This document shows positions 21,933 through 23,292 of a stretch of DNA of 64,000 nucleotides, one piece after another; position 1 is the stretch's first letter; each line of letters opens with the position of its first letter. The notes under the pieces are model-generated. The model was not told the origin of the DNA and did not search any database. It saw nothing but the letters and a program-made list of their open reading frames with translations. The position numbers and the translations under genes were made by a program. This DNA is from a bacterium (GTDB lineage Bacteria > Patescibacteriota > Patescibacteriia > 2-01-FULL-39-33), in NCBI GenBank assembly GCA_037130015.1, contig JBAXTU010000002.1, forward strand, positions 1,909 through 65,908, in the 5' to 3' direction.

Positions 21933-22048
21933 GCCACGGAACGAAATCCATCGTTGGAATTCCGATTGTCGGGATTGTTCCTGTTCAAGTTCGGCTGGCG
22001 ATTGTTGCGGTTCCAGTTGAAATTCGGAACATGGCCGGACACATTTTA
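21933..22048 (-). repeat. DGR template repeat (TR)
   Basis: ~116 bp; minus-strand sense is AAC-rich (encodes SGHVPNFNWNRNNRQPNLNRNNPDNRNSNDGFRSVAR); aligns to VR with 19 mismatches, all at TR adenines. Confidence 0.88.
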
Positions 22049-22305
22049 TGACGAAAAATATCCGCTTCGCCAGCTATCGCAATAACCGGCTACTGTTTGT
22101 TTTCCGCTCATACGCGAGGTTTTATGAAAAATAAATTATGTAAAGCTGGCAAATACCATATTAGCCAAAATGCTTAACAATAATTTGTTGCGGTTGCACG
22201 GTCCGAGCCGCGTGGCTATACCCCGCTGGAAATAATTTTCCCCGTCAAAGGATCAAAACTAAAATTAAAATAAAATTTAAATTCTAAAATCCAAAAGACA
22301 ACCAG

Positions 22306-23292
22306 CTACAACCTCGCCACGGAACGAAACCCATCGCAGGAAACCCGATAGTCGGGATTGACCCTGTCCAAGTACGGCCGGCGAAAGCTGCGGTACCAGT
22401 CGAAATCCGGAACATGGCCGGACACAAATTGTCCGACCAAATAATTAGCTTTGCCCTTGCCTTGATAGTCATCTATGGCGGTATGGTCTTCTTGCAGATG
22501 AGTCAGCCAATCAGAGAGAGCGGCTTCAGGGGTGAGGCCTTGTTCGTTTTGATATTGAGGATTTGTTTGCAGGGCTTTGAGGTAATCTTTGGGAGATTGA
22601 TTGGCTTCAAACTGTTTACGGCCATTGATGGTTTGGCCCTTGCCTTCGGCCGGCAAATCAGGGAGGTTTTCTAGGAGGAGGAATTGCCAAGCATTAGACG
22701 GATCTTGTTTAAGGAGTTCGCTTTTGTATTTACCACCTCGCTGATCTTTGGTCTGGCCGTCGTAATTGGTGACTTGGTATTCCATTTGCTTGTCTGGATC
22801 TGTCTGAGGATTGTCGCATTGGATGAGATCTTGCCAAATGTAGAGAGGATCTTCGGTGTTGAGCTCTAGCGTGGAGTCATCTGTGGCTTTAATACCTGAT
22901 TCCTGGTGGACTTTAAGCAAGGTTTCTTTGTACCTCTGGATTTGGATGGAAAGAGGCAGAGCAAAAGGCACGAGGCGAAGCTGGGTAAAGCCTTGTTCTG
23001 CTTTCTTTTCAATTATCTTTCTTTTTTCTGGGTCTTTAAGTTTGTTTAAGATGTCTTCATAGCTTGGCAAGCTGTATTCCTGGCCATCAACGCCAACAAT
23101 TCCCTGCTCGGGCATATATCTGTCTTTGTCTGGATCAACGGGAAAGTTTTCCAATAGGCCTGTTTGGTAGAGAACTTTTATTTGGGCTAGGTATTGGTCG
23201 TGTAAGTGGAGACGTTCGGCAAGAGCTTCAATGGCTTCTTGGCCATGGTCTTGCTGTTCTGTTTGGGATTTGCGACGTTCGGGAGAGGGCAT
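22306..23292 (-). CDS. DGR target protein copy 1 (C-terminal C-type-lectin/FGE-like variable domain), 328 aa
   Basis: C-terminus GQFVSGHVPDFDWYRSFRRPYLDRVNPDYRVSCDGFRSVARL matches the TR-encoded peptide except at Asn/adenine positions. Confidence 0.85.
   Translation of the reverse strand: MPSPERRKSQTEQQDHGQEAIEALAERLHLHDQYLAQIKVLYQTGLLENFPVDPDKDRYMPEQGIVGVDGQEYSLPSYEDILNKLKDPEKRKIIEKKAEQGFTQLRLVPFALPLSIQIQRYKETLLKVHQESGIKATDDSTLELNTEDPLYIWQDLIQCDNPQTDPDKQMEYQVTNYDGQTKDQRGGKYKSELLKQDPSNAWQFLLLENLPDLPAEGKGQTINGRKQFEANQSPKDYLKALQTNPQYQNEQGLTPEAALSDWLTHLQEDHTAIDDYQGKGKANYLVGQFVSGHVPDFDWYRSFRRPYLDRVNPDYRVSCDGFRSVARL
22316..22430 (-). repeat. DGR variable repeat VR (copy 1)
   Basis: nucleotide alignment to TR 21933..22048; flanks identical, internal differences only T->C/A on + strand. 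Confidence 0.85.

Follow-up and report, generated by a model that had tools for sequence, protein, structure and literature searches.

A chromosomal diversity-generating retroelement of a patescibacterium with a frameshifted reverse transcriptase gene and a possible repeat switch

Does a pair of short repeats that differ at adenines only mark a diversity-generating retroelement (DGR), has this element acted in its present host, and can it still act there? The question is raised by a stretch of 64,000 nucleotides, here called the window, from a bacterium of the Patescibacteriota (GTDB lineage Patescibacteriia; 2-01-FULL-39-33; assembly GCA_037130015.1, contig JBAXTU010000002.1, positions 1,909 to 65,908), in which a non-coding template repeat (TR) recurs in altered form as a variable repeat (VR) at the 3' end of an open reading frame (ORF), close to genes for a reverse transcriptase (RT) and for Avd, an accessory variability determinant. 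The TR/VR pair is a genuine DGR, one more of an already known class, and the locus as a whole is very probably best explained as a chromosomal DGR whose RT gene is currently frameshifted and which possibly carries a repeat switch. In addition to what the initial annotation of this DNA had claimed, the analysis provides a natural demonstration of homing, a second VR within a duplication, the present frameshift of the RT gene, and a lead on repeat-gated RT expression. All coordinates are positions of the window; TR and VR were compared without gaps and are read on the minus strand.

Adenine-specific variation and mutagenic homing

The argument starts from the following features:
21929..22047, minus strand: TR, non-coding, 119 nt with 36 adenines on the minus strand, aligned without gaps to both VRs.
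22312..22430, minus strand: variable repeat 1 (VR1), present in the window as allele VRa, covering codons ~289-327 of target gene 1 (328 aa).
23610..23728, minus strand: variable repeat 2 (VR2), identical to VR1.

The assignment of TR and VR and of their strand made in the initial annotation is borne out by the gapless alignment on the minus strand. A per-site substitution table of the pairwise alignment, the check proposed there, places all 20 mismatches between TR and VR1 in 21929-22047 at TR adenines (20 of 36, 56%); the number of differing non-adenine positions, which would have spoken against the claim, is zero, and the hypergeometric probability that all 20 mismatches land on adenines is 3e-13. 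The 19 mismatches originally counted are all found within the segments then compared, and on the plus strand (21933-22048 versus 22316-22431) they comprise ten T>A, nine T>C, and no T>G changes. The sole non-T mismatch of these segments is their last position (22048 A versus 22431 G), where the homology ends; on the other side, it continues for 4 nt beyond the start given earlier, to 21929/22312, and includes a 20th mismatch of the adenine type (21932 T versus 22315 C). The non-adenine core positions of TR are identical in both VRs (81/81), and a scan of the 64 kb with the TR adenines masked retrieved TR and the two VRs only, the next best score being 38/81.

Read in the frame of VR, TR contains 13 Asn codons, seven AAC and six AAT. 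Twelve of them are changed in VR1 to Asp, Tyr, Ser, Phe, Val, or Cys codons, in accordance with the number and the products stated earlier; the recoded codons had all been described as AAC, but only seven are AAC and five are AAT. Further codon changes in VR1 are one Gln to Arg replacement (CAG>CGG) and two silent ones (GGA>GGG and GCA>GCG). Three of the 20 differences, at 22427, 22428, and 22315, may represent fixed differences of the flanks instead of mutagenesis, because they are common to both known VR alleles.

The strongest support for homing comes from the second of these alleles, VRb, and does not rest on the comparison of TR with VR from which the claim arose. When target proteins are clustered at 90% identity, that of the window is joined by a single further protein (P0002), which differs in VR residues only. 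When the contig encoding it (L005, from a different NCBI metagenome-assembled genome, MAG) was compared with the window over ~22 kb, exactly 17 substitutions were found, all of them in VR and all at TR-adenine positions, and the TRs of both strains are identical. Relative to TR, 19 of the 36 adenines are changed in VRb (13 A>G, three A>T, and three A>C) and 20 of 36 in VRa, fractions close to the ~50% substitution per adenine reported for the Bordetella bRT-Avd complex in vitro and in vivo (PMC6182149). Two strains that are identical over 22 kb and differ only at programmed adenine positions are a rare clean natural case. The earlier statement that mutagenic homing has occurred at this locus is thus right, as a second VR allele exists in an otherwise identical strain; that it is occurring is doubtful, because the RT gene is frameshifted. 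The two strains differ in VR alone within 22 kb; the RT must accordingly have been active very recently, even though both of them now carry an allele in which its reading frame is broken.

The two end blocks of the repeats had been described as identical between TR and VR. Both match exactly, and the window contains three copies of each, the third belonging to VR2; one of them, GGAACATGGCCGGACACA, is nevertheless mutable, as its CAT adenine at 22415 is changed in VRb. A 10-nt inverted repeat, TGGCCGGACA / TGTCCGACCA with a 5-nt loop (22415-22439), lies across the 5' edge of VR. Its second arm is outside the TR homology, and TR consequently lacks the inverted repeat, which might help to mark the 5' boundary of VR or be due to chance.

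At the opposite end of the repeats, sequences resembling the initiation of mutagenic homing (IMH) element and its TR counterpart (IMH*) can be recognized:
22312..22329, minus strand: candidate IMH of VR1, an adenine-free 14-nt block, TTTCGTTCCGTGGC, followed by GAGG; putative function.
21929-21932, minus strand: IMH*-like version in TR, AAGG where VR has GAGG.
23610-23627, minus strand: VR2 equivalent of the candidate IMH.

The block TTTCGTTCCGTGGC is the longest adenine-free run of TR and has a GC content of 57%, compared to 38% for the genome; the last variable position of VR on this side is 22330. The base just after the block is A in TR and G in both VRa and VRb (21932/22315), and the similarity ends four bases later. 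A related cassette (L211) likewise has an adenine-free GC block, followed by A in TR and G in both VRs. Such a difference at the 3' ends of VR and TR is predicted by the IMH/IMH* model (PMC5758913), with which the adenine-free block and the fixed A/G difference are consistent. The proposal that the invariant 14-bp block is a candidate IMH is reasonable, the A/G difference being the telling feature; the invariance as such is uninformative, because a block without adenines cannot vary under adenine mutagenesis.

By analogy with the mechanism known from the Bordetella phage, TR would be transcribed and then copied into cDNA by RT and Avd, with misincorporation at about half of the template adenines. 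The cDNA would replace VR, i.e. the last ~40 codons of the target gene, so that Asn codons (AAC/AAT) would be recoded without the creation of stop codons, and the transfer would end at the adenine-free, GC-rich 3' block, the IMH-like region.

The broken reading frame of the reverse transcriptase gene

Whether the element can still act depends on the RT gene and is reflected in the state of the duplicated target genes:
21062..21601, minus strand: N-terminal part of the RT gene with motifs 1-3, ending at a TAA codon directly after the (GA)7 tract.
21065..21079, minus strand: (GA)7G simple sequence repeat (SSR) and frameshift site, immediately followed by TAA and located between RT motifs 3 and 4.
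20620..21064, minus strand: C-terminal part of the RT gene in the +1 frame, with motif 4 (GIPIGNLTSQ), YGDD, and the thumb.
22306..23292, minus strand: target gene 1, an ORF of 328 aa without known domain.
23604..24590, minus strand: target gene 2, with the same sequence as target gene 1 (100% identity).
22096..24698, no strand assigned: perfect duplication in tandem, made up of two units of 1298 bp and, at its bounds, a microhomology of 7 bp (TTTGTTT).

The RT gene is interrupted at the (GA)7 tract, the only dinucleotide repeat of at least five units in the 64 kb. The frame is restored either by addition of one GA unit, which yields an RT of 327 aa, or by removal of two units, which yields one of 325 aa. 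When repaired by one added unit, the protein matches the RVT_1 family (E 9e-18, profile positions 7-203 of 205), contains PIGNLTSQ and YGDD, and aligns over its full length to intact RTs of 312-345 aa from Patescibacteria MAGs, the nearest relatives coming from Uhrbacteria, Azambacteria, Peregrinibacteria, Gracilibacteria, and Saccharibacteria. An [I/L]GxxxSQ motif 4 is diagnostic of DGR-type RTs. An alternative genetic code was considered as the reason for the split and rejected, since each of the two halves uses a frame of its own and table 11 gives uninterrupted reading of long genes such as secA.

An intact RT ORF, a sign of a functional DGR, was found in none of the assemblies recovered for this species: the window shares its (GA)7 frameshift with the independent assemblies L001 (ENA) and L005, and L010, which has (GA)8G together with a deletion of CC 10 nt upstream, is out of frame, too. 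From these alleles we infer that the (GA)7 form and the L010 form each lie one 2-bp deletion away from an intact gene with CCC plus (GA)8. Among 5.8 billion proteins there was no intact RT with at least 90% identity, the nearest full-length RTs being 70-73% identical.

The state of the target genes points in the same direction. Each unit of 1298 bp carries the target gene together with the spacer downstream of it and the final 66 bp of murB, and VR2, which was absent from the initial annotation, does not differ from VR1. With the frame broken at (GA)7, a full-length RT could arise only through a change of frame; together with the identity of the duplicated VRs, this makes it most likely that the element is now silent. 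The duplication junction was also found in the independent assemblies L003, L004, and L008, of which L003 is a loop contig of 1439 bp with identical ends of 141 bp, corresponding to the 1298-bp unit plus the assembler k of 141. As L001 and L005 were assembled along a single-copy path, the copy number of the target gene may be polymorphic.

Reversible switch or loss of function

Silence at present may be a phase or an end state, and repeats in related RT genes bear on this alternative. In-frame (RE)n (Arg-Glu) runs of variable length occupy the same spot in 27 of the ~120 best RT relatives. In species-representative genomes, 14 of 78 RT genes contain a non-triplet repeat within the ~25 codons preceding motif 4, the units being GA (up to 27 nt), TC (32 nt), G10 (twice), AGAC (up to 98 nt), AGCA, AGTC, and AGCC. 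In the AlphaFold2 model of the intact relative P0010, which has a mean predicted local distance difference test (pLDDT) score of 91, the segment RERERESK scores lowest of all blocks (52) and lacks secondary structure; it forms a loop in which changes in length can be tolerated.

Metagenomes were scanned for (GA) runs of at least six units upstream of a PIGN motif, and at least 120 loci were obtained, of which 95 unique ones among the matches listed could be assessed; all counts of (GA)n alleles given here refer to these matches. A locus was scored ON when both RT halves are in one frame and OFF when they are in different frames. Eighteen loci were ON and 77 (81%) OFF, the latter split 41/36 over the two wrong frames; with repeat lengths at random, one-third of the loci would be expected to be ON, and the observed 19% falls short of this (binomial P 0.0014). 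Apart from the shift of frame, the OFF alleles are well preserved: a stop inside the matched halves occurs in only two of the 77, the C-half is open to the normal stop in 51 of 53 complete cases, the N-half has a stop in one of 60, and the median length of the C-half is 155 codons, compared to 149 in ON alleles. Within one lineage several run lengths coexist, runs of 13 and 19 nt being ON and those of 15, 17, and 21 nt OFF. The locus L113 (ON, 19-nt run) and the loci L092 and L123 (OFF, 17-nt run) differ by one GA unit within 300-nt flanks that are 100% identical, and over 3.4 kb their other differences are confined to VR and one 5' segment. This segment (L113:1-450) was noted as another hypervariable region, in which the 57 positions differing from L092 and L123 are concentrated in the first ~450 nt.

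Contingency loci formed by SSRs are exemplified by the tetranucleotide repeats of Haemophilus and the poly-G tracts of Campylobacter and Neisseria. A further example is the Type III methyltransferase gene of Mycoplasma mycoides with its (AG)12 tract (PMC3498834). The RT genes resemble such loci in having a non-triplet repeat inside the ORF, alleles that differ by whole units (such as (GA)7 in the window and (GA)8 in L010), coexisting in-frame and out-of-frame alleles among relatives, and a stop codon of the OFF frame right after the tract; in contrast to them, the gene concerned encodes the polymerase of targeted hypermutation and is not a surface or restriction-modification gene. Judged from these sequence patterns, the (GA)n tract is probably a reversible switch of diversification operating by slipped-strand changes, and not a mark of the element's death: changes of (GA)n would break and restore the RT frame and so turn diversification off and on, and the OFF state of most natural alleles would lock in a selected VR. 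With slightly less assurance, we suggest that in many Patescibacteria DGRs a hypermutable non-triplet repeat, located in a tolerant surface loop of the RT just upstream of motif 4, toggles targeted hypermutation, the window being an example of the OFF phase.

The alternative that survives best is that of a dead relic, i.e. a DGR that once worked and whose RT gene is now an irreversible pseudogene, (GA)n being merely a mutational weak point in a tolerant loop. Such decay would account for the out-of-frame state of every allele found in this species, for the second type of lesion in L010 (the CC deletion), and for the proportion of surveyed (GA)n RT genes out of frame, 81% where 67% would be expected from random length. 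It is possible but rather unlikely, as the RT was still at work within a time too short for even one point substitution to build up in the 22 kb shared by the window and L005, the halves of OFF alleles have remained open, separate lineages have repeats of six different non-triplet units in this one loop, and the ON/OFF pair described above is one unit apart in identical flanks. Plain decay fits intact halves and recurrent repeats poorly.

Improbable, too, is continued production of RT from the frameshifted gene by programmed ribosomal frameshifting or transcriptional slippage, which would sustain a low level of activity. The stop codon directly after the tract (GAG TAA A), where a +1 shift would restore the frame, is what such a mechanism might look like, and the intactness of OFF alleles would fit constant low-level use as well. 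The OFF alleles are, however, distributed about equally over both wrong frames (41 and 36), so that no single direction of shift rescues them; re-pairing from GAG to AGU would be poor, and slippage of RNA polymerase is best known at homopolymer runs, not at dinucleotide repeats. The identical VRs of the two gene copies also speak against ongoing homing.

Still less credible is an origin of the frameshift, the tandem duplication, or both in assembly or sequencing errors. Repeats are error-prone, perfect duplications of 1.3 kb are hard to resolve with short reads, and L001 and L005 do give a single-copy path; however, the identical (GA)7 allele is present in the window and in these two separate assemblies, the 15-nt tract is much shorter than assembly k-mers, and the junction was assembled independently in L003, L004, and L008, with the length of L003 being exactly that of the unit plus k (1439 = 1298 + 141). 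Finally, chance or ordinary paralogy, with TR and VR as diverged repeats or gene-conversion tracts formed without reverse transcription, has nothing in its favour besides the existence of a repeat and is ruled out by the confinement of every mismatch to one base of one strand, by the restriction of VRa/VRb differences to the same adenine positions, and by the adjacent RT and avd genes.

Several observations weigh against the reading of the locus as a DGR with a switchable RT. For this species only OFF alleles and no in-frame RT were found, so reversibility is unsupported in this genome, and the ON:OFF ratio among relatives is that of a sample from a scan with at least 120 loci. The duplication junction occurs in both the VRa and the VRb strain, yet each strain has a single VR allele, which requires homogenisation or turnover of copy number. 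No GC-rich inverted repeat or hairpin is present within 150 nt downstream of VR (fold z-score -1.4), a feature of only about a third of DGRs and not obligatory (PMC5758913). Furthermore, Foldseek searches of PDB and BFVD did not link the fold of the target protein to the C-type lectin or immunoglobulin folds typical of DGR targets.

If the tract is indeed a switch, it would add a level of regulation to DGRs, with a contingency locus in control of a diversity generator and one hypermutable site thus gating another. Control of DGR activity is poorly understood, and mutagenesis that strikes a working protein unchecked should come at a cost; by stochastic breakage and restoration of the RT frame, a slippery repeat would provide a simple, heritable, and reversible means of control. 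A practical consequence is that DGR finders demanding an intact RT ORF would miss most such elements, given that 81% of the (GA)n RT genes surveyed are split. As the repeat pattern recurs across many lineages of the candidate phyla radiation (CPR), metagenomic reads that already exist allow a direct test of the idea. In the literature searched, which did not extend to the main survey of Paul et al. (2017), no paper tied DGR RT genes to repeats or phase variation, and repeats or frameshifts of RT genes were not mentioned in the work on CPR DGRs.

Cassette architecture, target protein, and neighbouring genes

Two further genes complete the cassette:
21585..21926, plus strand: avd, encoding 113 aa; TR and RT are on the other strand.
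17952..20618, minus strand: ORF of 888 aa starting 2 nt after the RT stop codon, without family match.

On the minus strand, the two tandem copies of the target gene are followed by a spacer of 257 bp, TR, the avd gene of the opposite strand, RT, and the large ORF, which is conserved. The avd product matches PF22296 (bAvd) with an E-value of 6e-11, above the gathering score and over profile positions 5-106 of 107; the match to NF033474 (DivGenRetAVD, E 7e-15) reaches 55 bits and is under the curated cut-off of 80. An Avd accessory gene is present in ~74% of DGRs. A 92-aa ORF over TR (21764-22042) was rejected as spurious, as it has no family match and overlaps avd on the other strand. The avd and RT genes diverge, with a 17-bp overlap of their 5' ends (21585-21601), so that each promoter must lie inside the other gene and RNA between TR and RT is antisense to avd. 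The flanking genes, which are the mur/ftsW cluster for the cell wall at one end and secA at the other, show that the element is chromosomal. From the relatives of the RT and of the target protein, the host probably belongs to the Patescibacteria. The cassette layout is that of the published architecture B3, 'TR-(avd)-RT' (PMC5758913).

In comparison to the prototype DGR of the Bordetella phage BPP-1 (mtd-avd-TR-brt), the element shares the TR/VR differences at adenines only and at about half of them, a 3'-terminal VR in the target ORF, substitutions mainly in Asn codons, an Avd together with an RT having the [I/L]GxxxSQ motif 4, and an adenine-poor, GC-rich block that closes the mutagenised region. 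It differs from the BPP-1 element in being chromosomal and not phage-borne, in the position of avd on the opposite strand between TR and RT, in the lack of a GC hairpin after VR and of a recognizable C-type lectin domain in the target, and in the frameshifted RT gene. The element also resembles DGRs of Patescibacteria (CPR), represented by the CPR set of Wu et al. (2018, PMC5758913) and by clade 2 in the work of Roux et al. (2021, PMC8144416), which are likewise cell-encoded, with an RT of ~320 aa, a reverse-strand avd, and, in most cases, targets without known motifs. Two targets, as in the window, are found in 13% of DGRs; those of the window are special in being a perfect recent duplicate with identical VRs.

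The target protein (328 aa) has no sequence match in Pfam, NCBIfam, or PDB and belongs to a family of 57 uncharacterised proteins. Its AlphaFold2 model is of very high confidence (pLDDT 95.4, predicted template modelling score 0.91) and places VR in C-terminal beta strands; Foldseek searches of PDB and BFVD gave no neighbour with an E-value under 1. A local match of 47 columns to formylglycine-generating enzyme (E 5, weak) is only a hint of a lectin-like tip. The DGR described here thus diversifies a confidently modelled protein family without known domain or structural neighbour.

The 888-aa ORF is possibly an undescribed DGR-linked gene: its N-terminal 370 aa show 36% identity (E 1e-51) to ORFs of 1025-1027 aa that follow RT genes in two other contigs (L211:8962-12045 and L212:1715-4792), in genomic contexts other than that of the window. 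The RT of L211 is 69% identical to that of the window. In this cassette (L211:6117-13056), two diverged targets flank a core of avd, RT, and large ORF; all 18 mismatches between its VR1 and TR are at adenines (18/18), and its VR2 has several non-adenine differences as well and is accordingly older or less faithfully maintained.

Scans of 20.5-24.8 kb for promoters and terminators gave counts no higher than in shuffled sequence and were uninformative. Rfam and tRNA scans of the window detected only an L10 leader at 10270-10410, no tRNA, and nothing related to the cassette. Elsewhere in the window, an ORF of 806 aa (40131-42551) contains long in-frame hexanucleotide repeats, GAAGGA x ~21 at 40779-40909 and TGAAGG x 19 at 41174-41287.

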